From a bacterium UBA2219 (GTDB lineage Bacteria; Desulfobacterota; Deferrimicrobia; Deferrimicrobiales; Deferrimicrobiaceae): a stretch of DNA of 64,000 nucleotides. Shown piece by piece: positions 19,374 to 58,940 of this stretch. The position numbers were made by a program, and so were the translations under genes. Location: the NCBI GenBank assembly GCA_002327765.1, contig DCUH01000133.1:58885-122884 (forward strand), written 5' to 3'. The notes beneath the pieces were generated by a model that saw only the letters and a program-made list of their open reading frames with translations, made no database searches and was not told the DNA's origin. Numbering within the stretch: position 1 is the first letter of the stretch; the number at the start of each line of letters is the position of its first letter.

Positions 19374-22300
19374 TTGCGGTTCCTGCCCCGCCATCTCTGT
19401 CCCCGTTCTGGTGAAGAACTCATCAACGTCCCGGTTCTGTGGGTCGCTCTCCTTCTCGCGCTCCTCCTGGTGCTTTCTGCGGGCGGGCCCGCCGGCGCGG
19501 CGGAGCCGCTCTCCTCCGGGGTCACTCCCGAGCAGGCGGCCGCGATGCGGCAGCTCGTAGGGTCCGACCCCGAGGCGGCGAAGGCGGTGGAGGAAACGCT
19601 CCGGAGGAAGGCGGAAGAAGCGGAAGGCGGGGGCGGGAGCGCGGCCGGGACGGCGGGCGAGGCGGAAAAGAGGGACCTCTTCGGGGGAAAAGCCGCGCCC
19701 GAAGGGTCGGAGGCCCGGGCCGCGCGGATCGCGGCGGAGCCGCGGTACGACTGGACGAAGTCCACCTACGTCGGCGGGCTCTTCGGGAAGCGACTCACCG
19801 CCCGGGAGCGGGAGACGCTGCCCCATTTCGGGCACGACCTGTTCGCCTTCTCCTCCGTGACGCTGCAACCTCATGAAAACCTGCCGGTTTCGCCGGGATA
19901 CGTCGTCGGGCCGGGCGACGAGATCGTGGTGCGGATGTGGGGGCGCGTCGAGGGGACGCAGCGCATGGTGGTCGACCGCGACGGGAAGATCTTCTTCCCG
20001 AAGTTCGGCTCCCTCTACGTGGCCGGGAAGACCTTCGACGAGGTGCGGGCCTTCCTCATGGGGAAGGTCCAGACGATCGCCGAGGTCAGCTCCGACGTCG
20101 GCCTGGGGCAGATGAAGGGGATCCGCGTCTCCGCGATGGGCGAGGTGCGCTTCCCGGGGTGGTACAGCGTCAGCTCGCTCCACACGGCGATGCAGGCGCT
20201 CTCCGCCGCCGGGGGGATCAAGGACATCGGCTCGCTGCGCCGGATCCTGATCCGGCGCGGGGGAGGCGTGGCCGGGGAGGTCGACCTGTACGATTTCCTC
20301 CTCAAAGGGGACACGCGCGGGGACATCCACCTGCTGCAGGGCGACGTCGTCTTCGTCCCGGTCGTGGGGAAGCTCGCGGCGGTCGCGGGGGAGGTCCGCC
20401 GCCCCGCCATCTACGAGCTGAAGGGGGAGCGGTCGCTGCTCGACCTGATCCGCCTCGCGGGCGGGTTCACCCCGGCGGCCTACAAGCGGCGCGTCCAGGT
20501 GGAGCGGCTCGAGGGGAACACCGCGCGCGTGGTCTTCGACGCCGACGCCGACGCGCTGGAAAAGGGCGGGCACGGCTTCGAGCCGGCCGACGGCGACTTG
20601 GTGCGCGTCTTCCCGATCGTCCTGGCCGAGGAAAACGCGGTCCGTGTCGAGGGGAACGTCCAGCGCCCCGGCCGGTACGAGATGAAGAAGGGCATGACGG
20701 TGGGATCCCTCTTCAAGGGGGAGAAGGAGTTCCTGCCCGACACGTATTTCGACTACGCGCTGATAACCCGCCTCGTGCCTCCCGACCTGCGCAAGGAGGT
20801 CGTCCCGGTCAACCTGCGCGAGATCGTGCTGGAGCGCAAGCCCGGCTCGGACGTGCCCCTCAAATCCCGCGACACGCTGCGGGTGTTCCGCAGGAGCGAG
20901 TTCCGGGACTACCCGAGGGCGTCCATCTCCGGGGAGGTGCGGCTGGTGCGGGCGGGGCTGCTCAAGGAACCGGGGCTCGACAACCAGGCGGAGGAGAGGT
21001 TGCTCCGGGACGAGGCGGGCGGGGAACGGCTCGACGGTCAGGCGTCAGGGCGGGAAGCGGAGCGGCGCGCTGCCGCGTTCCCGGGCGCGGACGGCCTGCG
21101 CTCCGGCATGCGCCCCGTGGATTCCGTCGCCGCCGCCGATCTCCGCGATCGGGAGTTGCGCCGGATGGATCCGCGCAGGGCGGATCCGCCCGACCGGATG
21201 CTCCCCGACAGGGAACGGGACGCCCGCGGCGCGGCGCCCCGGGACGCGAACGGCCGCGACGCCAACCGGCGCGACCCGTCGGCCCGCGAAAGGGCGCTTC
21301 GGGACGCGGCCGACCGCGGCATGGACACCCGCGCCGAGGAGATCCTGAAGGCGGAGGAGCGCGGGGCGGACGTCCGCGACGTGGACGCCCCCAGGGCGGA
21401 GTCCCCCTTCTGGCGCGACGCGGTCTCCTTCGAGATCCACGGCGGGACGCGGGTGGCCGACCTCGTCCGGATGGCGGGCGGCCTCACCCGCATGGCGCAC
21501 CTCGATCGCGCCGAGATCGTCCGCGTGGACGAGAACCGCAACTACCGGACGATCTACTTCCACCTGGGCAAGGCGGTCGCCGGCGACCCGCAGGAGAACA
21601 GGCTCCTGGAAAACGAGGACCAGGTCCGCATCCACTCGGTGCTGGAGATGTCGTCCCGCAAGACGGTGTCCGTCTCGGGCGAGGTGAACCTGCCGGGCGA
21701 CTTCGTCCTCACGGAAGGGATGAAGCTGTCCGACCTGCTGTTCAAGGCCGGCGGTTTCCGGGAGAGCGCCTACCGGAGGGAGGCCGAGCTGGTGCGCCGG
21801 GAGGTCAACGTCCAGGGCGACCTCGTCAAGACGCAGGCGGTGGTCGTCTATCCCGACCGCGCGCTGTCGGGCGACAACACGGCGGACATCCCGTTGAAGG
21901 CCGACGACTACCTCTACGTCCGGCAGATCCCCGACTGGGGCGAGAAGATCGTCGTCACGCTGGCGGGGGAGTTCCGCTTCCCGGGGACCTACGCGGTGGC
22001 GAAAGGCGAGCGGATCAGCTCCGTGATCGAGCGGGCGGGCGGCTACACGACGGGCGCCTACGTGAAGGCCGGCGTCTTCACCCGCGTCTCCACCCGCGAG
22101 GCGCAGCAGCAGGCGATCGACCGGATGATCGAGGAGCTCGAGACCTCGATCGCGGAGAAGGGGCAGGAGGTGGGCGCCGCCCTCGACAAGGAGGACGTCG
22201 AGTCGAACCGGCAGCTTCTCGAGGCCCGAAGGAACCTCGTCTCCCAGCTGCGGAAGCTGAAGGCCCAGGGGCGGGTCATCGTGCGCCTTCGGGACCCCGA

Positions 22301-22715
22301 CGCGATGAAGGGGAGCAGCGACGACATCTTCCTGGAAGACGGCGACCGGCTCTACGTGCCGCAGAAGATGAACGTGGTGAACGTCGTGGGGAGGGTCTAC
22401 AACCCGACTGGCGTCGTCTACGACCCGGCGAACGACACCCTGGGCCATTACCTGAAGAGGGTCGGCGGGCCCGCGGGCAACGCGGACGAGGACAACATCT
22501 TTCTCCTGAAGGCGGACGGCTCGGTGGTGAGCCGCGCCAACGCCGACGGCAACTTCTTCACCGGCGGCTTCATGTCCTCGAAGGTGGAGCCGGGCGACTC
22601 CATCATCGTGCCGCAGAAGCTGTTCGAGGCCCGGGCGATGAAGGACGTGAAGGACCTCATCCAGATCATGTACCAGATCGCCGTGTCGGTAGGCGTGCTG
22701 GTGGTGGCGTTTTAG
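19374..22715 (+). CDS. Polysaccharide export protein, Wza/KpsD-like with Poly_export and multiple SLBB domains (paralog 1, about 1113 aa)
   Basis: Repeated SLBB-type modules (VVGPGDEIVVRMWGRVEG..., GEVRFPGWYSV..., GEVRRPAIYELKGERSLLDLIRLAGG..., GEFRFPGTYAVAKGERISSVIERAGG...). TTG start with an AGGAGGA RBS. Signal-like hydrophobic core WVALLLALLLVLSAGG. Contains an Arg/Asp-rich low-complexity insert of about 140 aa. Confidence 0.85.
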   Translation: MRFLPRHLCPRSGEELINVPVLWVALLLALLLVLSAGGPAGAAEPLSSGVTPEQAAAMRQLVGSDPEAAKAVEETLRRKAEEAEGGGGSAAGTAGEAEKRDLFGGKAAPEGSEARAARIAAEPRYDWTKSTYVGGLFGKRLTARERETLPHFGHDLFAFSSVTLQPHENLPVSPGYVVGPGDEIVVRMWGRVEGTQRMVVDRDGKIFFPKFGSLYVAGKTFDEVRAFLMGKVQTIAEVSSDVGLGQMKGIRVSAMGEVRFPGWYSVSSLHTAMQALSAAGGIKDIGSLRRILIRRGGGVAGEVDLYDFLLKGDTRGDIHLLQGDVVFVPVVGKLAAVAGEVRRPAIYELKGERSLLDLIRLAGGFTPAAYKRRVQVERLEGNTARVVFDADADALEKGGHGFEPADGDLVRVFPIVLAEENAVRVEGNVQRPGRYEMKKGMTVGSLFKGEKEFLPDTYFDYALITRLVPPDLRKEVVPVNLREIVLERKPGSDVPLKSRDTLRVFRRSEFRDYPRASISGEVRLVRAGLLKEPGLDNQAEERLLRDEAGGERLDGQASGREAERRAAAFPGADGLRSGMRPVDSVAAADLRDRELRRMDPRRADPPDRMLPDRERDARGAAPRDANGRDANRRDPSARERALRDAADRGMDTRAEEILKAEERGADVRDVDAPRAESPFWRDAVSFEIHGGTRVADLVRMAGGLTRMAHLDRAEIVRVDENRNYRTIYFHLGKAVAGDPQENRLLENEDQVRIHSVLEMSSRKTVSVSGEVNLPGDFVLTEGMKLSDLLFKAGGFRESAYRREAELVRREVNVQGDLVKTQAVVVYPDRALSGDNTADIPLKADDYLYVRQIPDWGEKIVVTLAGEFRFPGTYAVAKGERISSVIERAGGYTTGAYVKAGVFTRVSTREAQQQAIDRMIEELETSIAEKGQEVGAALDKEDVESNRQLLEARRNLVSQLRKLKAQGRVIVRLRDPDAMKGSSDDIFLEDGDRLYVPQKMNVVNVVGRVYNPTGVVYDPANDTLGHYLKRVGGPAGNADEDNIFLLKADGSVVSRANADGNFFTGGFMSSKVEPGDSIIVPQKLFEARAMKDVKDLIQIMYQIAVSVGVLVVAF
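19392..19443 (+). repeat. Copy C of the ~50-nt repeat family, overlapping the 5' end of the first export gene
   Basis: CATCTCTGTCCCCGTTCTGGTGAAGAACTCATCAACGTCCCGGTTCTGTGGG. Confidence 0.6.
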
Positions 22716-22724: not shown

Positions 22725-23612
22725 ATGAAAATGAAATCCACTCCGTATCCCGTTGGGGATGAAATCACCGTGGGAGATCTCCTGGAGAGACTGCGCGGCA
22801 ACTGGTTGAAGATCGTCCTGCTGTCGGCGGCGGCGGGAATCTTGACGTACATCGTGTTGCTTGCGAAGCCGAATGTCTACCGGACGACGGCCGTCATCGC
22901 TCCCGCTGTCGAGGAAAAGAGGACGAACTCGACCATCGGGGCGCTCGCATCGATCGGCATGGAGATTGGAAGTCCGAACAGGCTGGAAGATCTGGAGACC
23001 CTCTTCAAGAGCAAAGATCTCTCCGTGCGTGTGTTCGGGAAGCACGACCTCTGGTCGATCGTGCTCGGAGACCGGTTCAATCACGCAACGGGTAAGATCC
23101 GGGGCCGATGGACGGACCTGACGGAGAAGGGGGGAAGATCGCCTTCGGAATGGGATGCCATACGCACAGCGGAGAAGCGGCTGACCATATCCATCAACAA
23201 GAGGAGCGGCACGCTTTCCGTTTCGTTCGATGCGCCCTCCCCGGAAGGGTCCGCGAAAATCGTGGGGTATTACCTCGATGAAGGGAAAAGTCGATTACAG
23301 GAAGAGGCGCTGGGGCGCGCGATCATGAACAAGAAGTTCATCGAGGAGCAGATAGCGAAAACCCACGATGCGTTGACGCGTGACCGGCTCTATTCCCTGT
23401 ACAGCCAGGAGGTCGAGCGGGAGATGATGGGGCGGAACCGGGAGCAGTTCGGGTTCCGGATCATCGACACGCCACGTGTTCCGGACAGGAAGGTGCATCC
23501 CGGGAAGGTGTCCGCGGTTATCGCGGCCTATTGCATCGTCTTCTTCATAGGGTGCGTGTTTTTCGCCCTTCGTGGGAACGGGAGGGGGCGGGGAACGGAA
23601 GTACCGAGGTAG
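22725..23612 (+). CDS. Polysaccharide co-polymerase / chain-length determinant (Wzz-like; no kinase domain)
   Basis: N-terminal TM (WLKIVLLSAAAGILTYIVLL), a periplasmic coiled region, and a C-terminal TM (VSAVIAAYCIVFFIGCVFFAL). 295 aa. Confidence 0.75.
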   Translation: MKMKSTPYPVGDEITVGDLLERLRGNWLKIVLLSAAAGILTYIVLLAKPNVYRTTAVIAPAVEEKRTNSTIGALASIGMEIGSPNRLEDLETLFKSKDLSVRVFGKHDLWSIVLGDRFNHATGKIRGRWTDLTEKGGRSPSEWDAIRTAEKRLTISINKRSGTLSVSFDAPSPEGSAKIVGYYLDEGKSRLQEEALGRAIMNKKFIEEQIAKTHDALTRDRLYSLYSQEVEREMMGRNREQFGFRIIDTPRVPDRKVHPGKVSAVIAAYCIVFFIGCVFFALRGNGRGRGTEVPR

Positions 23613-23651: not shown

Positions 23652-24917
23652 GTGGGGAAAGATCTCTATATGTACCACGCATTGAACGCCAGCCAAGTGG
23701 CGTTGGGCGTGGTTTTCCATTTCCTCCTCGCGAGGCGGTTCGGGGCGGGGGCGGAAACGGATGTGTTTTTCCTGTCAGCCGTCGTCATAGGATTCCTTTC
23801 CCTAATAGGATCGCTTTTTTCGGAGATGTTCCTCCAGCACTACTGCAAGCTGCTGGCCCGGGATACCGGGAACGCGGAGGAATTCTACCAGGCGGCATTT
23901 ACTCATTCCATCCTTCTCGGCGCGATCAGCATCGCTTTCGGTAACTCGTTTTTCCACCTGATAACGGGGCTGTTTGCTCCTGGTTTTGATGATGGCCGGG
24001 CTTCGCTTTTCCGTGATTTCTTTTTTCTTCACAGCGGGACCTTGTTGCTTTCCCGCGCAGTCGGTTTGAACAATTCACTTCTGAACGCCCACATGCGATT
24101 CTTTCTCCCGTATTTCCTGTCCGTCGTCCTTCAAGCGATAAACATCATCTTCCTGGTCGCTTTTTCCGACCGTTGGGGAATCCGCGCGCTGGCGGCAGGA
24201 TCGGTCACCGGGGTCCTGGTTTCCTTCGGGATACAGGCGCTGGCTGTCCCGCGCCTAGTCGGCGTCCGGATGAGGATCCGCCTGTGGCATCCCTCTATAC
24301 GGCCCATGGCGGCGAGCAGCGTGTCTCTGCGTCTCGGGTACCAGGTCTGGGGTCTCAGGGATCTCATCACCGCGAATGTACTTTCCAGGCTCCCCGCCGG
24401 ATCCGTCAGCGAATTTTTCTATGCGATGAGGATCGTCTCCATCTTGTTTACCGTTACCAGCTCCCCGATCCTCCAGATCTTCCAATCGAAGGCGTCCCAC
24501 CTTGCTGCCGAGGAGAGGGCAAAGGACATCCTCCCGTTGGCGCGTCAGGCGATCCTGAAAAACGTTCTGTTGTTCTCCGCGGCCGCCCTGGTCACGGCCG
24601 TTCTCCTTCCGGAGGCGCTTCATCGTCTGTTCCGGGAGGCGATGAGCCCGGATTCGATGGATTCCATCTATTATCTGTTCCTGGCGTTCGTTCCCGTGTA
24701 CGTAATTATGGCCGTCGAGGCGCCCTACCTCCAGACGGTGATCGCCATGGTGCGCGGCGACGTAGTATTCTGGATCTCCACCGTCTTCATCACGGTTTAT
24801 TTCTTGGGAGTCCAGGCGATGGGAGTCTCTCGGGGTCCGTTCGGCCTCGTTGTGAGCATGGCGGTGGCGCAGGCGGTGAATCTCCTTTTGTATGCCCGTT
24901 TCGTCGAGCAACGGTAA
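23652..24917 (+). CDS. MOP-superfamily polysaccharide flippase (Wzx-like)
   Basis: 421 aa with about 12 predicted TM helices and polysaccharide biosynthesis protein topology. Confidence 0.75.
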   Translation: MGKDLYMYHALNASQVALGVVFHFLLARRFGAGAETDVFFLSAVVIGFLSLIGSLFSEMFLQHYCKLLARDTGNAEEFYQAAFTHSILLGAISIAFGNSFFHLITGLFAPGFDDGRASLFRDFFFLHSGTLLLSRAVGLNNSLLNAHMRFFLPYFLSVVLQAINIIFLVAFSDRWGIRALAAGSVTGVLVSFGIQALAVPRLVGVRMRIRLWHPSIRPMAASSVSLRLGYQVWGLRDLITANVLSRLPAGSVSEFFYAMRIVSILFTVTSSPILQIFQSKASHLAAEERAKDILPLARQAILKNVLLFSAAALVTAVLLPEALHRLFREAMSPDSMDSIYYLFLAFVPVYVIMAVEAPYLQTVIAMVRGDVVFWISTVFITVYFLGVQAMGVSRGPFGLVVSMAVAQAVNLLLYARFVEQR

Positions 24918-25860
24918 TGCCGTCTCCTTTCATCAGCGTCGTCATCAACTCGTATAACTACGCCGAATTCGTCGCGCAGGCAGTCCAAAGCGTCCTTGCC
25001 CAGCGGTTCCCGCCGTCCGACCGGGAGATCTTGATGATTGATGACGGTTCTTCGGACGGCACAGGGAAGGTGATGGCGGCATATGCGGGCAGCGTACGGT
25101 ACATACGGAAGGAAAACGGGGGCCAGGCTCTGCATTGAACCTGGGCTCGGCAATGGCTCGCTGGGAGATCGTCTGCCTGCTGGATGCGGACAACTGGTTC
25201 TACACCGACAAGCTTGCGGCCGTGGCCGAAAAATTCCGCCGCGAGCCGGAAACCGGGGTCGTCTACAACCGGTTCGATATCATCGACAAGGACGGGTTGA
25301 TCCGGCATGCCGCCGTTCCCCGTCGGCTCATCGAGGGCGATTTGTCGGCGCTCGTTCGAATCTGGCGTGCGCCGGGTTCACCTACTTCCGGGATATCGGT
25401 CCGCCGCGAGATCTTGAAGAGGATTCCGGTCCCCGAATCATCGTTCCGAATCTGCGCGGACTCCTTCTTCCCGGTTATCCTCCCCCTCGTCGCAAACGTC
25501 GGCGTCCTCAATGAAACGTTGCACGCATACCGGGTCCACGACCGAAACGGCTACCTTGGTAAAGCGGAAGAGCAGCGATTGGAAATCCACAGGGTTCAAT
25601 GGAATGTCTTGCAAAGATACGCGACAGATCTCGGCTACCCGTTGTTCGACGCGTTCAGGACAATCGAAAGGGCGCGAGGATTTCAGGAACGAAAGGAGAA
25701 TTTCTTTCGGGGAGCGAGGTTCCTCAAGGCGATGGAAGGGTCCCGCGGGCTTCGGGCATGGACTTTCGCGAAGCTCGTGCTTGCCACCATCTTCCCGCCG
25801 GATGGTGTTTCCTTCCTTCGTCGTTTCCGCCAGCGGATGAGTAGGGAATCAGGATTTTGA
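24917..25860 (+). pseudogene. GT2 glycosyltransferase disrupted by a -1 frameshift in a G5 tract (25118-25122)
   Basis: Frame A gives MPSPFISVVINSYNYAEFVAQAVQSVLAQRFPPSDREILMIDDGSSDGTGKV...ENGGQALH*. The -1 frame continues as NLGSAMARWEIVCLLDADNWF...(DAD motif). Adding one G would restore a contiguous ENGGPGSALNLGSAMARWEIVCLLDADN GT2 core. Confidence 0.7.
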
Positions 25861-25878
25861 ACGGATATCGATAAGGCA

Positions 25879-27174
25879 ATGACCAATATCCGACCGGTAG
25901 CCATCGCGGGGCGGCAGAGGGTCCACGGACTGGCGCTTCCCTGCTTGTACCAGCTGGAAATTCTGGATATCGCCGCCTTCCTCGTGCCCGTCACGCGGTT
26001 CATCGAAATCAGCCTGGTCGGGAGGCTCTTCCTGACGGATGTGCTGCTGGCGTGCATCCTCCTCCTGCTGTTGCCGGCCCGAGGGAAACGGCTTCGCGAG
26101 CGTCTTCCGTTGACGTTCCTTCTGCTGGCGCTTCTCTGGTTATCTGGGCAGCTGGCGGCGGACATTGTCCGGCAGGCGGAATTTCGGGATTATGCAAGGG
26201 GATGGTCGAAGATCCTGTTCACCATGATCAATTTCAGCGCGCTTTATCTGATGCTGGTCGGGAACAGGCGCCGCCTGATTCTGTACGCCGGCGGCTTGGC
26301 GGCAGGAGGGCTGGCGACGTATCTCTTCAACCCGAGCGTCTTCGCCGAAGGCCTGCCGTGGAAATTCGGATACGGGGAGTCCGTCACCTGGCTGATGGCG
26401 CTGTTAGCGACATTGCTTGCCGTCAACGGAAAAACCGGCCTGTATGCCGCGTGCACGGTCCTGGCGTCTTCTGCGGTCCTGAACCTGTCGATGGGCTTCC
26501 GAAGCCTTGGCGGAATCTGCTTCTTGTCATCCTGTTACCTGTTCCTCCTGGCTCGCTGGGGGGATGGGCTTGCAAAAGGGGGCGGTCTGCGAAGAATCCT
26601 GGTCGTCGGGGGGGCGCTGGCAATTTCCGGAGCGCTCGTTTATGCGGCATACGGACACGCGGCCCGCTCCGGATGGCTCGGCGAAAACGAACTGGGGAAA
26701 TTCGAGTCTCAGCTCTTGGGGAAGTACGGATTACTGCTCGGGGGTCGCGGCGAGGTGCTTGCGGCCGGCCGGGCCATCTACGATTCGCCGCTGCTAGGTC
26801 ATGGATCGTGGGCGAAGAATTACGATTATTCGTATTTTTATTATGAGCTGATGCGGCGGTCGGGCTATGTCGTGGAGGGGGAGGTCGAGGATGGACTGAT
26901 CCCCTCTCATTCCCACCTGCTGGGGGCGTGGGTCGAGGCTGGATTGGCGGGAGCCTTGTTCTGGATTTGGGTCCTGAGTCTTCCTGCTCGCGTAATGTTC
27001 GGTGTGTACGGAAAGGTGTTCCGATTGGCGCCGTTGGCGGTGCTCTTTGCCTTATTGTTGATCTGGGATGTGCTCTTTTCCCCGTATGGGGCGGCGCAGC
27101 GCTTTGTGACGCCATACTATGTCGTTTTCATGATGAGTTGCTTGTGTGTGAAGCATCCGGGAGGGGTGGATTGA
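25879..27174 (+). CDS. O-antigen ligase/polymerase-family membrane protein (Wzy-like)
   Basis: 431 aa with about 10-12 TM helices and a large periplasmic loop, as in Wzy_C/O-antigen ligase proteins. Lies in the cluster next to the flippase. Confidence 0.6.
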   Translation: MTNIRPVAIAGRQRVHGLALPCLYQLEILDIAAFLVPVTRFIEISLVGRLFLTDVLLACILLLLLPARGKRLRERLPLTFLLLALLWLSGQLAADIVRQAEFRDYARGWSKILFTMINFSALYLMLVGNRRRLILYAGGLAAGGLATYLFNPSVFAEGLPWKFGYGESVTWLMALLATLLAVNGKTGLYAACTVLASSAVLNLSMGFRSLGGICFLSSCYLFLLARWGDGLAKGGGLRRILVVGGALAISGALVYAAYGHAARSGWLGENELGKFESQLLGKYGLLLGGRGEVLAAGRAIYDSPLLGHGSWAKNYDYSYFYYELMRRSGYVVEGEVEDGLIPSHSHLLGAWVEAGLAGALFWIWVLSLPARVMFGVYGKVFRLAPLAVLFALLLIWDVLFSPYGAAQRFVTPYYVVFMMSCLCVKHPGGVD

Positions 27175-27953: not shown

Positions 27954-27964
27954 AGGAAAGGTCC

Positions 27965-51126: not shown

Positions 51127-52379
51127 GGGTCTGGCTGATCACGGTGGGGGAGCCGCTGCCCATCGACGACGACAACCCCCGCCTGTTGCGGACCGGCATC
51201 CTTTCCGACGTCCTGGCCCGGCGGGGGGACGAGGTCCTCTGGTGGACCTCCGCCTTCGACCACGTGCGGAAACGGCATCGTTGCCCGACGGATGCGGAAA
51301 GGGAGGCCGGCGCCCGGTGCCGCATCCGGTTGCTCCACGGGAGAGGCTACGACAGGAACGTTTCCGTCGCGCGCTACCTGGACCACCGGGAGGTGGCGCG
51401 GAAATTCCGGGAGCGGCAGGGGAGCGAACCGCGGCCGGACGTGATCGTGTGCTCCCTTCCCACCGTGGAGCTTTGCGTCGAGGCGGTCCGGTACGGAGAG
51501 AGGAACCGCGTTCCCGTGGCCGTCGACATCCGGGACCTGTGGCCGGACCTGATCGCGGAAATCGTCCCCCCGTGGGGCCGGTCCACGATGAAGCTGCTGC
51601 TTTCGCCGCTGTTCCGGGACGTCCGGGAGGTTTGCTCGAAAGCGACGGCGCTGTTCGGCCTGACCCCGGAGTTCCTGGACTGGGGGCTGGGCTACGCCGG
51701 CCGGGAAAAGAGCGGCCTGGACAGGGTGTTCCCGATGGGCTACGTTGCCCACGCCCCGCCGCGGGAAGAGGTGGAGGAGGCGTCGAAGCGGTGGGAGGCC
51801 GCCGGCGTCTCCGCGGAAGACTTCAACCTCTGCTACTTCGGGGCGATCGGCCGCCAGTCGGATTTCGGTACGGTCATCGACGCCGCGAGGATCCTGTCGC
51901 GCGGCCCGCGCCGGTTCCGGTTCGTCCTCTGCGGGAACGGGGAGAAGCTCGATCATTACAGGAAATACGCCGCCGGCTGTCCCGGGATCCTTTTCCCGGG
52001 GTGGGTGAACCGTGCGGAGATCTACTCCCTGATGAGGATCTCCTCGGCGGGCCTCGTTGCGTTCCTGAACAAGAAGAACTACACCTGGAACCTCCCGAAC
52101 AAGCCGATCGAGTACCTGTCCGCGGGGCTGCCCGTCGTCTCGAGCCTTACCGGGGTCCTCCAGAGGCTGCTATCCGGGAACCGGTGCGGCGTGACGTACG
52201 AGGAGGGGAATCCGGAATCGCTGGCCGAAGCCCTCGTCCGCCTGTACGATGACAGGAATGAGCTGCGCCGGATGGCGGGCAATGCGAAGGATCTGTACGA
52301 CAGGTCGTTCCAGGCGGAGCGGGTCTACGGCGAAATGGCCGGGCACCTGCAGCGCATGACGGAGGAGTGGAGGCGATGA
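51123..52379 (+). CDS. Glycosyltransferase family 4
   Basis: GTG start overlapping the upstream stop. GT-B fold with a C-terminal nucleotide-binding region. 418 aa. Confidence 0.8.
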   Translation: MRVWLITVGEPLPIDDDNPRLLRTGILSDVLARRGDEVLWWTSAFDHVRKRHRCPTDAEREAGARCRIRLLHGRGYDRNVSVARYLDHREVARKFRERQGSEPRPDVIVCSLPTVELCVEAVRYGERNRVPVAVDIRDLWPDLIAEIVPPWGRSTMKLLLSPLFRDVREVCSKATALFGLTPEFLDWGLGYAGREKSGLDRVFPMGYVAHAPPREEVEEASKRWEAAGVSAEDFNLCYFGAIGRQSDFGTVIDAARILSRGPRRFRFVLCGNGEKLDHYRKYAAGCPGILFPGWVNRAEIYSLMRISSAGLVAFLNKKNYTWNLPNKPIEYLSAGLPVVSSLTGVLQRLLSGNRCGVTYEEGNPESLAEALVRLYDDRNELRRMAGNAKDLYDRSFQAERVYGEMAGHLQRMTEEWRR

Positions 52380-53266
52380 GCGGGGCGAGGGAGGGCGCGG
52401 CGGGCGCGCACCGTTCCGGGGAGGATGTCCAGGTCTTCCTCGAGGCGCTGCGGGCCGTGGAGGCCGTGCGCGACGAGGAGTGGATGGCGGGGCTCGACGA
52501 GAGGAAACGGATCGAGCTCGTATTCCACGACAAGCACAGGGACCGGCAGAAGGAGCAGGCGCTCGACAAGGACACGTTCGACAAGCTCTACGGGAACAAG
52601 AAGTATTACTCGACCACGGAGCTTTCCAAGGAGTACCTGGACGGGTGGATCGCCCGGGAGGCGCGAGGGGGGATCTTCCTCGATTACGCCTGCGGCAACG
52701 GGGCGTACGCGATCAAGGCCGCCAAGGCCGGGGCGGCCCTCTCCGTGGGGATAGACATCAGCCCGGTTTCCGTGTCGAACGCCCGGCAGGACGCCGAACG
52801 GGAGGGGGTTGCCGGGAACACGAGGTTCCTTCAGGCGGACGCCGAGGACACGCGGCTTCCGGCGGGCTCTGTCGACCGCGTCCTCTGCAACGGGATGCTC
52901 CACCACCTCGATCTCTCCCGCGCCTTCCCGGAGCTCGAAAGGATCCTGGCGCCGGGCGGCCGCATCCTCGCCGTCGAGGCGCTCGATTACAACCCCGCGA
53001 TCAGGCTGTATCGGCGCCTGACGCCGGACATGCGGACCGAATGGGAGAAGAACCACATCCTCGACCTCGGGGACCTCGAATACGCCCGCCGCTTCTTCAC
53101 GCTGGGGGAGGTCCGCTACTGGCACATCACGAGCATCCTGGCGCCCCACGCGAGGGCGCTGCTGCCCGTGCTGAACCGGATCGACCGCGTTCTCACGAGG
53201 ATCCCGCTGGTCCGGCTCATGGCGTGGATCTTCACGTTCGAGCTCGTCAAGGCGGAGCGCCTCTGA
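52376..53266 (+). CDS. Class I SAM-dependent methyltransferase
   Basis: Motif I FLDYACGNGAYAI, and Methyltransf_11-type LAPGGRILAVE. ATG overlaps the upstream stop. Confidence 0.75.
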   Translation: MSGAREGAAGAHRSGEDVQVFLEALRAVEAVRDEEWMAGLDERKRIELVFHDKHRDRQKEQALDKDTFDKLYGNKKYYSTTELSKEYLDGWIAREARGGIFLDYACGNGAYAIKAAKAGAALSVGIDISPVSVSNARQDAEREGVAGNTRFLQADAEDTRLPAGSVDRVLCNGMLHHLDLSRAFPELERILAPGGRILAVEALDYNPAIRLYRRLTPDMRTEWEKNHILDLGDLEYARRFFTLGEVRYWHITSILAPHARALLPVLNRIDRVLTRIPLVRLMAWIFTFELVKAERL

Positions 53267-54042
53267 TGGAGGTCGATTTCCTGTCCGTGACGGAGTTGAC
53301 GGGGGACGACGTAACCGCCGAACAGGTCGACCGGATCTGCCAGCGCTATTACTGGGCCGGGGAGCATTGCCGGGGGAAGGACGTCCTCGAGGCGGCCTGC
53401 GGGACCGGGCAGGGCGCGGGGTACCTGGCCGGGCTGGCGAAAAGCTACTGCGCCGGCGATTATTCGGAAAGGATCCTGGAGATCGCCCGCGCCCATTACG
53501 GCGGGCGGGTCGCGTTCCGGCGGTTCGACGCCCAGGAGATGCCGTTTGGCGACGGTTCGTTCGACGTCGTGGTCCTGTTCGAGGCGATCTATTACATTCC
53601 TTCCGCCGAGCGGTTCGTCTCGGAATGCCGCCGCGTGCTGCATCCCGGCGGGAAGGTGCTGATCGCCACGGCGAACAAGGACCTGTACGACTTCAACCCC
53701 AGCCCGCACAGCGTCGCCTATTACGGCGTCCCCGAGCTGAGGGACGTTTTCGCCCGGCACGGCTTCGCGACAGCGTTCTTCGGCAACACGCCCGTGGACG
53801 GTCTCTCGCTTCGCCAGAGGATGCTCCGGCCGGTGAAAAAATTCATCGTGGACCGGGGGCTCATGCCGAAGACCATGGCGGGAAAGAAGTTCTTCAAAAA
53901 GCTCGTTTTCGGGTCCCTCGTTCCCATGCCGCCGGAAGTCCTTCCCGGCATGGTCCCTCGACAGGAGCCGGTCCCCCTTTCCGGCGACCGTCCCGATACG
54001 AGGCACAAGGTCCTCTACTGCCTGGCGACGGCCCCGGGGTGA
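53266..54042 (+). CDS. Class I SAM-dependent methyltransferase
   Basis: Motif I VLEAACGTGQGAGYL, and VLHPGGKVLIAT. ATG overlaps the upstream stop (ctgATGg). Confidence 0.75.
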   Translation: MEVDFLSVTELTGDDVTAEQVDRICQRYYWAGEHCRGKDVLEAACGTGQGAGYLAGLAKSYCAGDYSERILEIARAHYGGRVAFRRFDAQEMPFGDGSFDVVVLFEAIYYIPSAERFVSECRRVLHPGGKVLIATANKDLYDFNPSPHSVAYYGVPELRDVFARHGFATAFFGNTPVDGLSLRQRMLRPVKKFIVDRGLMPKTMAGKKFFKKLVFGSLVPMPPEVLPGMVPRQEPVPLSGDRPDTRHKVLYCLATAPG

Positions 54043-54046: not shown

Positions 54047-54682
54047 GTGGGCAAACGGCTGTTCGACGTCGTTTTTTCCGCGATGGGCCTGTCGATCCTG
54101 GCCCCTTTCCTGCTCCTCCTCGCCGCGGCGATCAAGCTCGATTCTCCCGGGCCGGTCTTCTATCGCGGGGTCCGGGTGGGGCTGGGCGGCCGCCCCTTCC
54201 GAATCTACAAGTTCCGAAGCATGGTGGCCGACGCCGAGTCGAAGGGCGCCTCGTCGACCAGCGGGGCCGACCCGCGGGTCACCCGCACCGGGCGGTTCAT
54301 CCGGCGGTGCAAGCTGGACGAGTTCTCCCAGTTGATCAACGTGCTTTTGGGGGACATGAGCCTGGTCGGCCCCCGCCCGGAGGTGCAGAAGTACGTCGAC
54401 CGGTACACCGACGAGGAAAAGGTTATACTGACGGTCCGTCCCGGAATCACCGACTGGGCCTCCATCAAGTACCACAACGAGGGGGAGATCATCGAGTCTT
54501 CCGGGATCGCCGACGCGGACGAGGCGTACGAGCGGCTCATCCGGCCCGGGAAGCTCCGGCTGCAGATGAAATACGTCCGGGAGCGCAACATGTGGATCGA
54601 CATCCAGATCATTTTCCGCACGATCCTGACGATTGTTTCCGGCCGCGCGGGGGGCGGCCCGGTCGGGATCCCGGAGGATTGA
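54047..54682 (+). CDS. Small monotopic polyprenyl-phosphate sugar phosphotransferase (PglC/WcaJ-C-domain type; second priming enzyme)
   Basis: MGKRLFDVVFSAMGLSILAPFLLLLAAAIKLDSPGPVFYRGVRVG...YKFRSM...LINVLLGDMSLVGPRP. 211 aa with a single N-terminal re-entrant helix. Confidence 0.85.
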   Translation: MGKRLFDVVFSAMGLSILAPFLLLLAAAIKLDSPGPVFYRGVRVGLGGRPFRIYKFRSMVADAESKGASSTSGADPRVTRTGRFIRRCKLDEFSQLINVLLGDMSLVGPRPEVQKYVDRYTDEEKVILTVRPGITDWASIKYHNEGEIIESSGIADADEAYERLIRPGKLRLQMKYVRERNMWIDIQIIFRTILTIVSGRAGGGPVGIPED

Positions 54683-54695: not shown

Positions 54696-55883
54696 ATGCG
54701 TTTCTCCATCAATCCCCACATCGAGAAGGTCATCTTCCCGCCGATCGTGGAGATCAAGCGCTCGGTCGTCGGGGACGCGGCGCCCTGCGGGAAGCCGTAC
54801 ATCGACCTCTGCCAGGCGGTGCCCGATTACCCGCCGGCCCGGGAGATGGTCGAGGCGCTGACGGCGCGGCTGCACGAACCGGAAACCGCCCTGTATACCT
54901 CCGACGAGGGGCTCCCCGAGGTCCGGGAGGCGGTCTGCCGGCGGTACCGGCGGATGTACGGCGCGTCCCTTTCGGCGGACAGCGTCTGCCTGACCGTCGG
55001 CGCCAGCCAGGCGTTCTGGCTGGCCATGGTCGCTCTGTGCGCCGCGGGGGACGAGGTCATCCTGCAGGTCCCGTTCTACTTCGACTACGACATGGCGCTC
55101 GGGATGATGGGGATCCGCCGCGTCTACGCGCCGTTCCGGGAGGAGTCCGGCGGCCTGCCCGACGCGGAGGCGATCGAGGCGCTGATCACTCCCCGCACCC
55201 GGGCGATCCTCCTCGTGACGCCCAGCAACCCGACGGGTGTCGTGATTCCTCCGGAGCTCCTCGACCGGCTTTTCGAAACGGCGAAACGGGCCGGGGTCGC
55301 GCTGGTGGTCGACGAGACCTACGCCGACTTCATCGCCGGCGGCGCACGTCCCCACGGGCTGTTCGGGCGCCCCGACTGGCGGGACCACTTCGTCCACATC
55401 ATGTCGTTCGGCAAGACGTACGCGATGACCGGCTACCGGGCCGGCCTGCTGATCGGGTCGGAGCGGTTCCTCCACCAGGCGATGAAGGCCCACGACACCA
55501 TGGCGATCTGCCAGCCGACGCCGACCCAGATCGCGCTGGGGTACGGCCTCGACCGCCTCGACGAATGGGTCGCGTCCAACCGCCGGATGATGGAGCGGCG
55601 GCACGACCGCTTCCGGGAGGAGTTCACGGCGCCGGGGAACCCCTTCGCGCTGGTCGCCAGCGGCGCTTTCTTCGCGTGGATCCGGCACCCCTACCGGGGC
55701 GCGTCGGGATGGTCCGTCGCGCGGAGCCTCATAGAGAAAGCGGGGCTGGTCACGCTGCCGGGGGAGATCTTCGGGCCGGAAATGTCGCGCTACCTCCGCG
55801 TGGCATTCGGTAATATCGTGGAGGAGCGGATCCCGGAGGCGGTTTCCCGATTCCGGGAGCTCAAGGGAGAGGAAGCGGGATGA
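54696..55883 (+). CDS. PLP-dependent aminotransferase, class I/II fold
   Basis: SFGKTYAMTGYRAGLL (Schiff-base lysine context). 395 aa. Confidence 0.8.
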   Translation: MRFSINPHIEKVIFPPIVEIKRSVVGDAAPCGKPYIDLCQAVPDYPPAREMVEALTARLHEPETALYTSDEGLPEVREAVCRRYRRMYGASLSADSVCLTVGASQAFWLAMVALCAAGDEVILQVPFYFDYDMALGMMGIRRVYAPFREESGGLPDAEAIEALITPRTRAILLVTPSNPTGVVIPPELLDRLFETAKRAGVALVVDETYADFIAGGARPHGLFGRPDWRDHFVHIMSFGKTYAMTGYRAGLLIGSERFLHQAMKAHDTMAICQPTPTQIALGYGLDRLDEWVASNRRMMERRHDRFREEFTAPGNPFALVASGAFFAWIRHPYRGASGWSVARSLIEKAGLVTLPGEIFGPEMSRYLRVAFGNIVEERIPEAVSRFRELKGEEAG

Positions 55884-56986
55884 GAAAAGTGCGGTTCGTG
55901 GAACCGGCGAAAGTCTACCGGATGATCAAGGACGAGCTCGACGCCGCCTATTTCGACTGCATGGCGAGGGGGGAGCTGATCGACCGCGGGCACCTTCGGA
56001 GCTTCGAGGAGAACCTGGCGCGGTTCGTGGGGACGAAATACGCCGTGGGGCTGAACAGCGGCTACGACGCGCTTCACATGTCGCTGCGGGCGGCGGGGAT
56101 CGGTCCCGGGGACGAGGTCGTCGTCCCGGCGCACACGTTCGTGGCGACCTGCTCCGCGGTGGTGAACGTGGGCGCGACGCCCGTGCTGGTCGATGTGGGG
56201 AAGGATTTCAACATCGACGTCGACCGGGTCGAGGAGTCCCTGACCCCGAGGACCCGGGCGATCATCGCCGTCCATCTGAGCGGGTACATGGCCGACATGC
56301 CCCGCATCCTGCGGATCGCGGAGAAGCACGGGCTGAAGGTCGTGGAAGACGCGTGCCAGAGCCTGGGCAGCAGCATTGACGGGAAGATGGCGGGCTCCTT
56401 CGGCCTCACTGGCTGCTGGAGCTTCTACCCGTTCAAGATCCTGGGCGGGTACGGGGACGGCGGGGCGGTCACGACGGACGACCCCGAAGTTGCGCTGTTC
56501 GCCCGGCGGATGCGGTACAACGGGGAGGACCGGGACACGGGGGAATACCACGGCCACGGCTTCACCTGCCTCCTGGACAACCTCCAGGCGGCGTTCCTTG
56601 ACGTGAAACTGCGGCATCTGCCGGCCTGGATCGTCCGGCGGAAGGCCGTCGCGGAGATGTACCGGCGCGGCTTGAGCGGCATCCCGGGCCTGATGCTGCC
56701 GCATTACGACCGCCCCGGATTCGATCATGTCTACCAGAACTACACGGTCCGCTCGACGCGTGGGAACGAGTTCTCTGAATACCTGAAGGCCAACGGCATC
56801 GAGGTGCTCACGCAGTTCCGGAAGCCGTACTACCGGCACGAGGCGCTGGGCCTTCCGGACCGCGGCTTCCCGGAAACGGAGGCCCTGAGCCGCGAGGTAT
56901 GCTCCCTTCCGATGAACGTGGAGCTCGACGACGAAGAGATCGAATACGTCATCCGCATGGTGCGTTCCTTTTACGGGCTCGCATGA
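55880..56986 (+). CDS. DegT/DnrJ/EryC1/StrS-family sugar aminotransferase
   Basis: Typical DegT motifs (GDEVVVPAHTFVAT, FYPFKILGGYGDGGAV, CSLPMN). Confidence 0.9.
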   Translation: MRKVRFVEPAKVYRMIKDELDAAYFDCMARGELIDRGHLRSFEENLARFVGTKYAVGLNSGYDALHMSLRAAGIGPGDEVVVPAHTFVATCSAVVNVGATPVLVDVGKDFNIDVDRVEESLTPRTRAIIAVHLSGYMADMPRILRIAEKHGLKVVEDACQSLGSSIDGKMAGSFGLTGCWSFYPFKILGGYGDGGAVTTDDPEVALFARRMRYNGEDRDTGEYHGHGFTCLLDNLQAAFLDVKLRHLPAWIVRRKAVAEMYRRGLSGIPGLMLPHYDRPGFDHVYQNYTVRSTRGNEFSEYLKANGIEVLTQFRKPYYRHEALGLPDRGFPETEALSREVCSLPMNVELDDEEIEYVIRMVRSFYGLA

Positions 56987-57966
56987 AGGACGGAGGTGAC
57001 CGCGGATTGAGGGTGTCCCCGAAAGACCTCTACCGCGCGATGGTCCGCATCCGCGTCTGCGAGGAGAGCTTCGTCGAGCCGATCCTCGCCCGGGAGATCC
57101 TGTGCCCGGTCCACCTTTACACCGGTCAGGAGGCGGTGGCCGCCGGGGTCTGCGCGGCCCTGTCGAAGGAGGATTACATCTTCGGCAACCACCGTTCCCA
57201 CGGGCATTATCTCGCGAAGGGCGGCGGCATGAGGGAGCTGGTGGCCGAGGTGTATTGCAGGGAAACGGGCTGCTCCCGGGGGTGGGGCGGCTCCATGCAC
57301 CTCGTGGACCCCTCCGTCGGCATGATGGGTTCCGCGCCCATCGTGGCGGGGACGGTCTCCCTGGCGCTGGGGGCCGCGCTCGCCTCGAAGATCCGCGGCG
57401 ACGGCCGGGTCGCCGTCAGCTTCTTCGGTGACGGCGCCAGCGGCGAGGGGGTCCTGTGCGAGTCGCTGAACTTCGCCGCGCTGGAGAGGCTGCCGCTCCT
57501 GTTCGTCTGCGAGAACAACCTCTATTCCACGCACCTGCCCATCGACGAGATCCGCGTCAGCCGGAAGATCTTCGAGCTGGGAATCCCGTTCGGCGTGACG
57601 AGCCGCCGCGTCGACGGGAACGACGCCCTCGCGGTCCACGAGGCCGCGCGGAAAGCGGTGTCCATGTGCCGGAAGGGAAAGGGGCCGGTCTTCCTGGAGT
57701 GCCTGACGTACCGCATGCGGGGCCACGTCGGACCGGACGACAACATCCAGGGGACGCACACCGACATCCGCCCGCCGGCCGAGGTGGAGAAGTGGCGGCG
57801 GAAGGATCCTATCCGGAGGATAGAGCGTCACATCCTGAGGAACCGGGTCGCATCGCGGGAGGAGCTGGCGGAGATCCGCGCCGAGGCGGAAGCGGAAGTC
57901 CGCGAGGCGCACGATTTCGCCCGGCGCAGCCCGTTTCCGGGAGAGGGGATTACTGAGCCGACATGA
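56983..57966 (+). CDS. TPP-dependent dehydrogenase E1 component alpha subunit (PdhA/AcoA-like)
   Basis: TPP-binding motif (GDGASGEGVLCESLNFAALERLPLLFVCENNLY) and phospho-loop region (YRMRGHVGPDD). Confidence 0.85.
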   Translation: MKDGGDRGLRVSPKDLYRAMVRIRVCEESFVEPILAREILCPVHLYTGQEAVAAGVCAALSKEDYIFGNHRSHGHYLAKGGGMRELVAEVYCRETGCSRGWGGSMHLVDPSVGMMGSAPIVAGTVSLALGAALASKIRGDGRVAVSFFGDGASGEGVLCESLNFAALERLPLLFVCENNLYSTHLPIDEIRVSRKIFELGIPFGVTSRRVDGNDALAVHEAARKAVSMCRKGKGPVFLECLTYRMRGHVGPDDNIQGTHTDIRPPAEVEKWRRKDPIRRIERHILRNRVASREELAEIRAEAEAEVREAHDFARRSPFPGEGITEPT

Positions 57967-58940
57967 CCGCGAAGGGCCGGAAGTTGACCTATAGCCTCGC
58001 GATCAACGAGGCGCTCCACCAGTCGATGGAACGGGACGATTCCGTCCTCCTCCTCGGGCAGGGGGTCAAGAGTCCCTGGTACGTCGGGAACACGGCCCAG
58101 GGCCTGTTGAAGCGGTTCGGGAAGCTCCGGGTGATCGACACGCCGGTGTCGGAGAACGCGATGACCGGAGCCGCCGTCGGGGCCTCCATCGTCGGGATGC
58201 GCGCGGTGGTCGTCCACCCGAGGGTGGATTTCATGCTGTACGCCTTCGACCCCATCGTCAACGAGGCGGCCAACTGGTCCTACATGAACGGCTCCCGGAC
58301 CCCGGTCCCGGTGGTCTTCTGGGGAGTCGTCAACCGCGGGGGGGAGCAGGCCGCCCAGCACTCGCAGTCCCTTCACGCGACGTTTTCCCACGTCCCCGGC
58401 CTCAAGGTGGTGATGCCCGCCACTCCATTCGACGCGAAGGGGCTGATGACCGCCGCGATCCGCGACGACGGCCCCGTGGTCTTCATCGACGACCGGTGGC
58501 TGTACGACGTCGAGGGCGTGGTCCCCGCGGAGCCCTACGTCGTTCCGATCGGGAGGGGGATCGTGCGGAGGGAGGGGAAGGACGTGTCGCTGGTCGCGTC
58601 GTCCTACATGGTCGCGGAATCGATGAAAGCCGCCGCGATTCTCGAGCGGGAAGGCGTCGACGCCGAGGTCGTCGACCTGCGGACGGTCAAGCCGCTGGAT
58701 GTTGCGCTGATCCTTGCGTCGGTGGGGAAGACGGGCCGCGCGGTGATCGTGGACGGCGGCTGGAAGACGTGCGGCCTGGCCGCCGAGGTGGCCGCCCTCA
58801 TCGCGGAAAACGGTCTCTGCGGCGGGAAAAACCTCATCCGGCGGGTCACCCTGCCGGACACCCCGGCGCCCGCGAGCCGATCGCTGGAGAAAGGATATTA
58901 CCTCGACGCCCGGAAGATCGTCGAGGCCGTGATGAGGTAA
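57963..58940 (+). CDS. TPP-dependent dehydrogenase E1 component beta subunit (PdhB/AcoB-like)
   Basis: Transketolase-like pyrimidine-binding domain (VIDTPVSENAMTGAAVGASIVGMRAVV) plus a C-terminal domain. Confidence 0.85.
   Translation: MTAKGRKLTYSLAINEALHQSMERDDSVLLLGQGVKSPWYVGNTAQGLLKRFGKLRVIDTPVSENAMTGAAVGASIVGMRAVVVHPRVDFMLYAFDPIVNEAANWSYMNGSRTPVPVVFWGVVNRGGEQAAQHSQSLHATFSHVPGLKVVMPATPFDAKGLMTAAIRDDGPVVFIDDRWLYDVEGVVPAEPYVVPIGRGIVRREGKDVSLVASSYMVAESMKAAAILEREGVDAEVVDLRTVKPLDVALILASVGKTGRAVIVDGGWKTCGLAAEVAALIAENGLCGGKNLIRRVTLPDTPAPASRSLEKGYYLDARKIVEAVMR

Follow-up and report, generated by a model that had tools for sequence, protein, structure and literature searches.

Does a gene cluster that carries two sets of polysaccharide assembly genes end to end direct the synthesis of two surface polysaccharides from one transcription unit? 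The question is raised by positions 19374-58940 of a 64-kb stretch of DNA (the window, meaning the whole stretch that was analysed) from an uncultured high-GC soil or sediment bacterium, the relatives of which carry the labels Deltaproteobacteria, Deferrimicrobiaceae or Syntrophorhabdaceae. Two sets are confirmed in the cluster, each with an outer-membrane polysaccharide export (OPX, Wza-like) protein, a polysaccharide co-polymerase (PCP, Wzz-like), a Wzx flippase, a Wzy-like protein and a PglC-like priming phosphoglycosyltransferase (PGT). Our reading, to which we give a probability of roughly 0.68, is that the cluster is native and that one operon headed by an RfaH-like gene and an ops element encodes two export lines, both Wzx/Wzy-dependent and kinase-less, each for a different surface polysaccharide. 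We infer both the co-transcription and the two polymers from the genes described below.

Organisation of the gene cluster

Spurious open reading frames (ORFs) are abundant at the GC content of the window (about 68%). Frames were therefore fixed by plots of third-position GC (GC3), and each candidate was then scanned against Pfam and NCBIfam. This gave 35 genes, all on the + strand, so the co-directional cluster of about 40 kb with two sets that was originally predicted is real. Its gene coordinates stand throughout, except that OPX2 starts at the ATG at 42031 and not at 42033; a methyltransferase gene (47329-48099) had been overlooked. Adjacent coding sequences either overlap, by 1-13 nt, or lie no more than 76 nt apart; a single gap, of 210 nt (32257-32466), is the exception. 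A low-GC island lies at 22.7-34 kb, where GC goes from 0.70 to 0.37-0.60, with drops to 37-45%.

Each set has its own glycosyltransferases (GTs), methyltransferases and priming transferase (PGT1 at 36502, PGT2 at 54047), as had been proposed. The glycan genes of set 1 comprise three of family GT2, four of family GT4 and three methyltransferases, plus PGT1. Related loci are given by L numbers where they have to be told apart.

19374-22715, + strand: OPX1, Wza-like outer-membrane export protein, 1113 amino acids (Poly_export, seven SLBB and three SLBB_2 stretches; the called protein P0001 is 100% identical)
22725-23612, + strand: PCP1, Wzz-type co-polymerase, 295 amino acids (Pfam Wzz 30.7 bits, cut-off 25.5; weak GNVR match)
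23652-24917, + strand: Wzx1, polytopic MOP-family flippase, 421 amino acids (Pfam MurJ 50.9 bits, cut-off 27.4; TIGR01695 4e-18)
24917-25860, + strand: GT2, frameshifted (Pfam match to profile positions 70-166 only, in the downstream part)
25879-27174, + strand: Wzy1, polytopic protein of the Wzy_C/WaaL fold, putative repeat-unit polymerase (homologues and predicted fold)
27171-27953, + strand: GT2 (Pfam Glycos_transf_2, 2.6e-29)
27950-29020, + strand: GT4 with two in-frame stops (the halves match N- and C-terminal parts of Glycos_transf_1)
29017-30162, + strand: GT4, 42% GC (Pfam)
30176-31081, + strand: S-adenosylmethionine (SAM)-dependent methyltransferase (Pfam Methyltransf_23, 1.7e-25)
31084-32256, + strand: GT4 (Pfam 3.5e-33; orthologues in L010 and L007 66-69% identical)
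32467-33363, + strand: SAM-dependent methyltransferase, 37% GC, behind the 210-nt gap (Pfam)
33430-34320, + strand: GT2 (Pfam; 73-75% identical in L010 and L007)
34310-35266, + strand: SAM-dependent methyltransferase (Pfam)
35266-36501, + strand: GT4 (Pfam; frame from GC3 plot)
36502-37227, + strand: PGT1, small Bac_transf priming PGT (Pfam Bac_transf 4.3e-38, 131.1 bits, cut-off 27)

Between PGT1 and OPX2 lie a short-chain dehydrogenase/reductase (SDR), an FkpA-like prolyl isomerase, CapD and Wzi. The isomerase also matches NCBIfam BamJ below its cut-off (83.6 bits), and its gene is not found at the same position in L007, L001 and L091.

37224-37949, + strand: SDR (Pfam adh_short)
37963-38625, + strand: periplasmic FkpA-like FKBP prolyl isomerase with signal peptide (Pfam FKBP_N and FKBP_C; NCBIfam FKBP-type isomerase)
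38637-40544, + strand: CapD/PglF-type membrane UDP-GlcNAc 4,6-dehydratase (Pfam Polysacc_synt_2, 9e-115)
40541-42034, + strand: Wzi-family outer-membrane beta-barrel (Caps_assemb_Wzi PF14052 231.8 bits, cut-off 30.1; E. coli Wzi 2YNK 4.6e-22)

The glycan genes of set 2 encode three methyltransferases, an acetyltransferase, a WbsX GT, a GT4 and PGT2. They are followed by a tail of two aminotransferases and a thiamine pyrophosphate (TPP)-dependent E1 alpha/beta pair ending at 58940. A combination like that of this tail (54696-58940), with its pyruvate-dehydrogenase-like E1 pair, is uncommon in glycan loci; it hints that an amino sugar may carry an unusual substituent, acyl or branched.

42031-44550, + strand: OPX2, Wza-like export protein, 839 amino acids (Poly_export, four SLBB and three SLBB_2 stretches; Wza 2J58 2.7e-10; GC3 frame)
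44575-45717, + strand: PCP2, Wzz/GNVR co-polymerase, 380 amino acids (Pfam Wzz 57.1 bits, cut-off 25.5; GNVR 40.6 bits)
45794-47332, + strand: Wzx2, putative polytopic MOP flippase, 512 amino acids (NCBIfam WZX_like 9.3e-10, 38 bits, and MOP flippase 4.4e-6, both below cut-off)
47329-48099, + strand: methyltransferase (GC3 frame; Pfam Methyltransf_11)
48100-49326, + strand: Wzy2, polytopic, putative repeat-unit polymerase (TIGR04370 E = 9e-4, 18.3 bits, cut-off 40)
49326-49925, + strand: hexapeptide O-acetyltransferase, WbbJ-like (family scans)
49993-51126, + strand: WbsX-family GT (Pfam 6.9e-91)
51123-52379, + strand: GT4 (family scan)
52367-53266, + strand: methyltransferase (family scan)
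53266-54042, + strand: methyltransferase (GC3 frame, family scan)
54047-54682, + strand: PGT2, small PglC-like priming PGT (Pfam Bac_transf 2.7e-61, 206.6 bits, cut-off 27)
54696-55883, + strand: class I/II pyridoxal phosphate aminotransferase (Pfam; NF005732 520.8 bits, above cut-off)
55880-56986, + strand: DegT/PseC-type sugar aminotransferase (Pfam 3.8e-95)
56983-58940, + strand: last cluster genes, TPP-dependent E1 alpha (56983-57966) and E1 beta (57963-58940) (family scans)

OPX, PCP, PGT, CapD, Wzi and Wzx1 all score above curated cut-offs. Wzx2 has no Pfam match, and a Pfam scan of Wzy2 at E <= 10 gave nothing; the alignment of Wzy2 to TIGR04370 is full-length (residues 14-396 to profile positions 10-394 of 396). 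Wzy1 itself matches no Pfam family even at E <= 10, and PF04932 (Wzy_C) is matched by 18 of its 35 homologues. A profile of these homologues gave chance matches only against sequences in the PDB, and WaaL was reached instead by a fold search. The AlphaFold2 (AF2) model of Wzy1 has a mean predicted local distance difference test (pLDDT) score of 88, and its sole meaningful PDB fold match is WaaL 7TPG (probability 1.00, template modelling score 0.5). As the Wzy_C/WaaL fold fits a polymerase or a ligase alike, it is the gene context that points to a polymerase. An O-antigen pathway with WaaL-type ligation was considered for set 1 and rejected: the pairing of OPX1 with PCP1 is tightly conserved, and set 1 has no other polymerase candidate. 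In 13 of 21 related loci a PCP1-type gene lies less than 3 kb behind the OPX1-type one.

An RfaH-like gene and one ops element

The cluster is preceded by an RfaH-like gene and a leader of 275 nt, and is followed by a hairpin. The original prediction named neither this gene nor the ops element in the leader.

18604-19098, + strand: RfaH-like NusG paralog, 164 amino acids (Pfam NusG; the ORF opens at 18469, likely start TTG 18604)
19159-19167, + strand: extended -10-like box TGATATGAT, candidate operon promoter by consensus resemblance only
19236-19277, + strand: mini-ORF of 13 codons (MGGSLPAGPATLL), codons 2-5 of which contain the ops element GGCGGTAGCTTG (19239-19250)
59431-59461, no strand assigned: strong GC-rich 13-bp hairpin and T tract (- strand in the scoring), in the gap between the cluster and the convergent gene that follows

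The best NCBIfam match of the RfaH-like protein is RfaH (TIGR01955, 95.6 bits), ahead of UpxY, NusG and LoaP; against the PDB it matches E. coli RfaH at 6e-10 and NusG at 1.5e-4. Of 27 related loci, 21 have an RfaH-like gene less than 3 kb upstream of the OPX1-type gene. The range of RfaH is mostly proteobacterial (PMC7593976), and the lineage studied here is thus outside it. RfaH orthologues encoded beside long lipopolysaccharide-type operons have recently been described (PMC13015549).

The 12-mer GGCGGTAGCTTG in the leader is an exact + strand match to ops (GGCGGTAGnnTG). It is the sole match in 64 kb, where 0.12 would be expected by chance. The core GGCGGTAG, in the context CGCATGGGCGGTAGCCTGCC, is present in 36 of 39 related leaders downstream of RfaH-like genes; these include the leaders of L014, L092, L090, L033, L035, L023, L030, L016, L054, L068 and L085. 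Boxes such as TGTTATAAT and GTATAAT occur 75-100 nt upstream of ops in most of them, and ops is presumably part of the transcribed leader.

In 34 of the 36 related leaders a start codon stands right in front of the ops core. In nine of these the codon (ATG or GTG) is the start of the first gene, which encodes Wzi or an OPX1-type protein (MGGSL...), and most of the nine have a GGAGG or CGAGG Shine-Dalgarno sequence ahead of it. In the other 25 it opens a short ORF, often of 14 codons (MGGSLPVFRSGxSx), with a stop that overlaps the OPX1 start (ATGA). A long ORF follows downstream in 21 of the short-ORF cases, and in 19 of these the stop of the short ORF is within 5 nt of its start, some of the loci being near-duplicates. 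The mini-ORF in the window is a 13-codon remnant without a Shine-Dalgarno sequence. With ops placed at a start codon, the loading of RfaH may be tied to the initiation of translation; no mention of the arrangement was found in the cited RfaH literature (PMC7593976, PMC13015549).

One transcription unit or two neighbouring loci

No other + strand ops core occurs anywhere in the cluster, and there is none before set 2. At the junction of the two sets the gaps between genes do not exceed 13 nt, coding sequences overlap by 4 nt at PGT1/SDR, CapD/Wzi and Wzi/OPX2, and the scan found no terminator-like site in the intergenic gaps. Scans of the whole cluster for sigma-70 promoters and intrinsic terminators gave counts equal to the shuffled expectation, which neither favour nor exclude internal signals. 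The ops element and RfaH-like gene, the background level of the scans, the hairpin at the end and the overlaps at the junction therefore support one long RfaH-assisted unit. The suggestion that two polymers might be made from one transcription unit fits the single ops, the overlapping codons at the junction and the scans.

The two sets could instead be adjacent loci that are transcribed independently, with a promoter for set 2 at about 36.5-42 kb, so that their close packing is mere neighbourhood, as with the adjacent cps and rfb loci of enterobacteria. The promoter scan, being consensus-based, says little for the source organism. Compared with L007 and L091, the window has the extra SDR, FkpA-like, CapD and Wzi genes between PGT1 and OPX2, which shows that the junction is plastic. 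A lone OPX2-type set stands behind its own RfaH-like gene and ops in L003. L003 is the only one of the OPX2-type loci checked that has ops, however: six internal OPX2-type genes in relatives have none within 10 kb on either side. With the tight junction and the lack of + strand ops or terminator-like sites in its gaps, this makes independent transcription improbable in our view.

For a single RfaH-assisted operon, the following course can be envisaged. Transcription would probably start at a promoter in the 275-nt leader. On meeting ops at 19239-19250, RNA polymerase would be loaded with the RfaH-like factor and become resistant to termination; it could then run for about 40 kb through the 35 genes.

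Export proteins, co-polymerases and Wzi

Both OPX proteins match Poly_export (OPX1 61.2 bits, OPX2 59.3 bits) and SLBB (165.8 and 135 bits, respectively), and both have a Sec signal without a lipobox. They end in a conserved hydrophobic segment (...KDxxQILYQIAVxxGVLxxAF) which is predicted to be helical; its core, Q[IL][ILM][YFA][QN], is found in the final 30 residues of 216 of 240 OPX matches. The helix spans residues 809-838 in an AF2 model of OPX2 of low confidence (pLDDT 59.8). The same low-confidence model has a long helical hairpin between SLBB domains, at residues 626-682 (about 43906-44076). A class 3 OPX working with a separate beta-barrel, as in Myxococcus, was rejected, since both proteins retain the C-terminal hydrophobic helix.

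Both PCPs have two transmembrane segments near the ends, and each protein stops just after the second. No kinase or phosphatase domain (Wzc BY-kinase, Wzb) was found among the roughly 55 window proteins scanned.

Wzi is present in a single copy in the window, and the end of its gene overlaps the start of OPX2. The pairing of Wzi with a long multi-SLBB exporter had been regarded as unusual. This is not borne out, because the pairing recurs in relatives and is described in the literature. Wzi lies immediately upstream of an OPX1-type gene in 11 of 27 related metagenome loci and immediately downstream of one in others (L040, L044, L090 and L092); class 1 OPX proteins have 1-14 SLBB domains, and Wzi barrels are encoded near OPX genes of every class (PMC9603273).

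Judged by their sequences, two ancient and separate Wzx/Wzy-dependent assembly lines stand in tandem. Each has a long non-lipoprotein multi-SLBB OPX, a kinase-less PCP, a flippase (putative in set 2), a putative Wzy-like polymerase, GTs and methyltransferases, and a PglC-like PGT. If the proteins act as their families do, each line would build its own undecaprenyl-phosphate-linked repeat unit, flip it and polymerise it in the periplasm, and each polymer would leave through its own PCP-OPX conduit. The probable role of the one Wzi barrel is to anchor or organise polymer at the cell surface.

Age of the two sets

OPX1 and OPX2 are collinear and 36-38% identical, with extra SLBB repeats in OPX1, which bears out the prediction that they are collinear multi-SLBB paralogs. 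PCP1 and PCP2 are 28% identical over 76 amino acids, and PGT1 and PGT2 30%; pairwise comparison of Wzx1 with Wzx2 and of Wzy1 with Wzy2 gave no detectable similarity. Database searches with the OPX proteins gave thousands of relatives, and grouping covers the 240 matches listed. All 240 split cleanly into an OPX1-type (median 1000 amino acids) and an OPX2-type (median 819 amino acids). The paralogs are thus old, belong to separate orthologue groups and occur in tandem elsewhere too, which does not agree with the further proposal that the locus is a duplication still diverging.

A recent duplication, or an artefact in the form of a collapsed or chimeric contig in a metagenome-assembled genome, might be suspected from the metagenomic origin of the window and the sharp shift in GC within the cluster. 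The identity between the sets is just 28-38% or undetectable, however, whereas near-identical sets would be the mark of such a duplication. Separate contigs from another assembly match the window at three places (25798-28295, 28421-31147 and 41415-46665) with 0-2 mismatches, and the tandem layout recurs in two other genomes, described below with contigs (L097 and L098) in which the OPX-PCP pairs are side by side. Recent duplication and assembly artefact were rejected on sequence identity, independent contigs and synteny, and are extremely improbable. Exact-product look-ups of CapD, OPX1 (P0001) and Wzx1 gave no match.

Layout in relatives and exchange of cassettes

In the 1.88-Mb ENA contig_22916 an OPX1-type gene (1677623) and an OPX2-type gene (1695527) start 17.9 kb apart. 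The order is caspase, DUF5647, NusG paralog, OPX1-type, PIN, Wzi, Wzz, Wzx, GT, Wzy_C, GT, acetyltransferase, DegT, PGT, OPX2-type, Wzz, nonulosonic-acid genes and a second flippase. The PIN-domain gene between the OPX1-type gene and Wzi in this relative is at L092 13491-13823. CAWHIM010000019.1 has an OPX1-type gene (with Wzi and Wzz) at 34212 and an OPX2-type gene at 53767; the latter is preceded by orthologues of the window GTs at 31084, 33430 and 35266. The genes for OPX1, PCP1, OPX2 and PCP2 are contiguous in the metagenome contig pair L097 (39-7867) and L098, and L044 (10109-18175) has the order OPX-Wzi-OPX-PCP. These recurring layouts make two OPX/PCP pairs per locus an old trait of the lineage, with variable spacing. 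They suggest that the OPX-PCP pairs began as neighbours and cassettes were inserted between them later, or the reverse.

The OPX genes are conserved, with a GC content typical of the genome; the cassettes that follow them are low in GC and variable between relatives. L099, a close relative, has 92% DNA identity across OPX1, and the match ends at window position 22727 (L099 4607). Its PCP1 is just 56% identical at the protein level, and later genes are different, including a different flippase and a Wzy_C protein. This sharp recombination breakpoint, at the boundary of OPX1 and PCP1, falls where GC drops in the window. Cassettes of set 2 also vary among relatives. By their sequences, the cassettes are swapped by recombination, which is the pattern of serotype loci.

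Directly adjacent OPX-PCP pairs, as in L097 and L098, look as if they formed one export module, and there is just one Wzi per locus. The two sets might accordingly cooperate on one product, either with a lipid-linked primer or adaptor joined to a main chain, or with a mixed OPX1/OPX2 channel. Against this, a separate priming transferase, flippase and polymerase-like protein are encoded in each set, the signature of separate repeat-unit pathways, and variable cassettes change independently in relatives; cooperation is therefore very improbable.

Lesions in set 1

Two GT genes of set 1 are disrupted, so the set is not strictly complete; of the "two complete, diverged sets" that were predicted, it is the divergence that stands. 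The GT2 at 24917-25860 has a 1-nt frameshift near 25118: its first 73 codons (MPSPFISVVINSYNY...) are in one frame and the rest, from 25135, in another. The GT4 at 27950-29020 has an in-frame TGA (28613-28615) and an in-frame TAG (28625-28627), 12 nt apart. Both stops are repeated in L096, a separate short-read contig from another assembly; the orthologue in L010 is intact and of the same length. The lesions are probably real rather than general assembly noise, as the remaining cluster genes are all intact.

With two GTs inactivated, polymer 1 is probably altered or lost in the source genome. The strain might have only one working pathway, set 1 decaying after a cassette exchange and set 2 alone yielding a polymer. 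Both lesions lie inside the low-GC set-1 cassette, and the GT4 stops are reproduced in a second contig while the related gene is intact, as decay would have it. About 14 other set-1 genes are intact, however, including those for the 1113-residue OPX1, PCP1, Wzx1, Wzy1 and PGT1. The loss of one or two GTs can instead yield a simpler repeat unit, and the GT2 frameshift has been seen in one assembly. We consider a single working pathway unlikely, though by no means far-fetched.

Weighing the two-polymer reading

Several points weigh against one operon for two polymers. Pfam Wza_C (PF18412) is undetected in the C-terminus of either OPX, even at E <= 10, and the OPX2 structure model (pLDDT 59.8) is too poor for a fold search. 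The calls of Wzx2 and of both Wzy proteins are putative, with sub-threshold or fold-level support. The RfaH-like protein scores 95.6 bits where the NCBIfam RfaH cut-off is 144.5. The leader (18900-19500) matches no Rfam family at E <= 1, JUMPstart included, and has nothing at the Rfam gathering score. Internal promoters may be present, candidates being the 210-nt gap (32257-32466) and the gaps of 66-76 nt. The sets are not obligatorily linked, because the OPX2-type set of L003 has its own RfaH and ops. With two broken GTs, set 1 may be non-functional and only one polymer made.

The reading of one RfaH/ops-headed operon with two export lines can be extended by a fuller account, which is tentative and which we hold at less than even odds. 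Here one locus-encoded RfaH-type factor, acting at one ops, would license a 35-gene operon of about 40 kb for two chemically different surface polysaccharides, exported by two paralogous conduits of long OPX and kinase-less PCP with a shared Wzi. Ancestrally, ops would have formed codons 2-4 of the first translated ORF; this would have been either the first gene or a 14-codon leader ORF with a stop overlapping the start of the first gene (ATGA). In such a layout, loading of the anti-terminator and coupling of the ribosome would be set up at the same nucleotides.

Neighbouring genes

In many relatives (L014, L019, L025, L040, L044, L090 and L092) a caspase-like Peptidase_C14 gene is conserved close upstream of the RfaH-like gene, and a DUF5647 gene often separates the two. 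In the window, Peptidase_C14 is at 15013-15963, and MetE (16066-18378) lies between it and the RfaH-like gene; MetE is also directly upstream of the RfaH-like gene in L010 and L099. The only Rfam match in the window at gathering score is a tRNA. It overlaps the 5' end of a mechanically called Usp ORF (12705-13421), the true start of which must therefore be further downstream. YjbH/GfcD barrels have been reported near OPX genes (PMC9603273), and the family member behind the cluster could be a second barrel partner for one OPX.

13354-13427, - strand: tRNA (Rfam, 66.5 bits)
59886-63005, - strand: YjbH/GfcD-family outer-membrane protein, 1039 amino acids, convergent to the cluster end (PF06082, 409 bits)
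63149-64000, + strand: UDP-glucose dehydrogenase, after the YjbH/GfcD gene

Significance and comparison with known systems

Every component belongs to a known, well-studied family, and the understanding of polysaccharide export is unchanged; the arrangement is real and only moderately unusual. It indicates that a poorly known uncultured soil or sediment group keeps two Wzx/Wzy lines fused in one very long operon-like unit. The locus lends itself to testing how far RNA polymerase is carried by one anti-termination event, and whether two OPX/PCP conduits can work side by side without tyrosine-kinase control. If functional, the ops element at the start codon bears on how RfaH couples transcription to translation.

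The pathway type is that of the group 1 capsule of E. coli K30 and Klebsiella, which has wzi-wza-wzb-wzc followed by a serotype region of wzx, wzy and GT genes, and is controlled by RfaH through ops/JUMPStart. Both have Wzi, OPX and PCP at the head and then a variable low-GC serotype cassette, and both have the exact ops core in the leader and an RfaH-type factor. They differ in that the window lacks a Wzb phosphatase and a Wzc kinase domain, has its RfaH-like gene at the locus itself, and carries two OPX/PCP/Wzx/Wzy/PGT sets in tandem. Whereas Wza has two SLBB domains, the OPX proteins of 839 and 1113 amino acids have 7-10, with no lipobox and no detectable Wza_C.

In Klebsiella and E. coli, cps and rfb are adjacent loci, but each is a transcription unit by itself with a leader of its own, and an OPX/PCP pair is present in the capsule locus only. 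The window resembles them in having two surface-polysaccharide loci side by side, with variable cassettes exchanged by recombination. Unlike in cps and rfb, each set in the window includes an OPX/PCP pair, the sets follow each other without an intervening ops or large gap, and there are coding overlaps where they meet.

Class 1 OPX proteins have the architecture Poly_export-SLBB(1-14)-Wza_C, a median length of 378 amino acids and, in about 78% of cases, a lipoprotein signal (Saidi et al. 2022, PMC9603273). The window proteins share Poly_export with many SLBB domains, a hydrophobic C-terminal helix of about 30 residues and a Wzi-type barrel nearby. They differ from class 1 in their Sec/SPI signal, in that Wza_C is undetected by Pfam and in a length far above the median.

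A NusG paralog directly upstream of its presumed target operon is also found in Bacteroides UpxY loci, with LoaP and with "monomorphic" RfaH orthologues (PMC13015549). In contrast to UpxY loci, the paralog in the window scores best as RfaH, the leader has an ops core of the enterobacterial type, and one paralog and one ops serve two export sets.

Like the source organism, Myxococcus xanthus, with its EPS, BPS and MASC polysaccharides, is an environmental bacterium formerly placed in the Deltaproteobacteria that has several Wzx/Wzy-OPX-PCP pathways in parallel; partial matches to NCBIfam EpsY occur in the window. Myxococcus OPX proteins are of the short class 3, are paired with PgaA-like barrels and belong to pathways at separate loci (PMC9603273), whereas those in the window are long, keep a C-terminal helix and are encoded in tandem. 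What is new here is thus an organisational variant of known Wzx/Wzy-OPX-PCP systems with RfaH/ops control.

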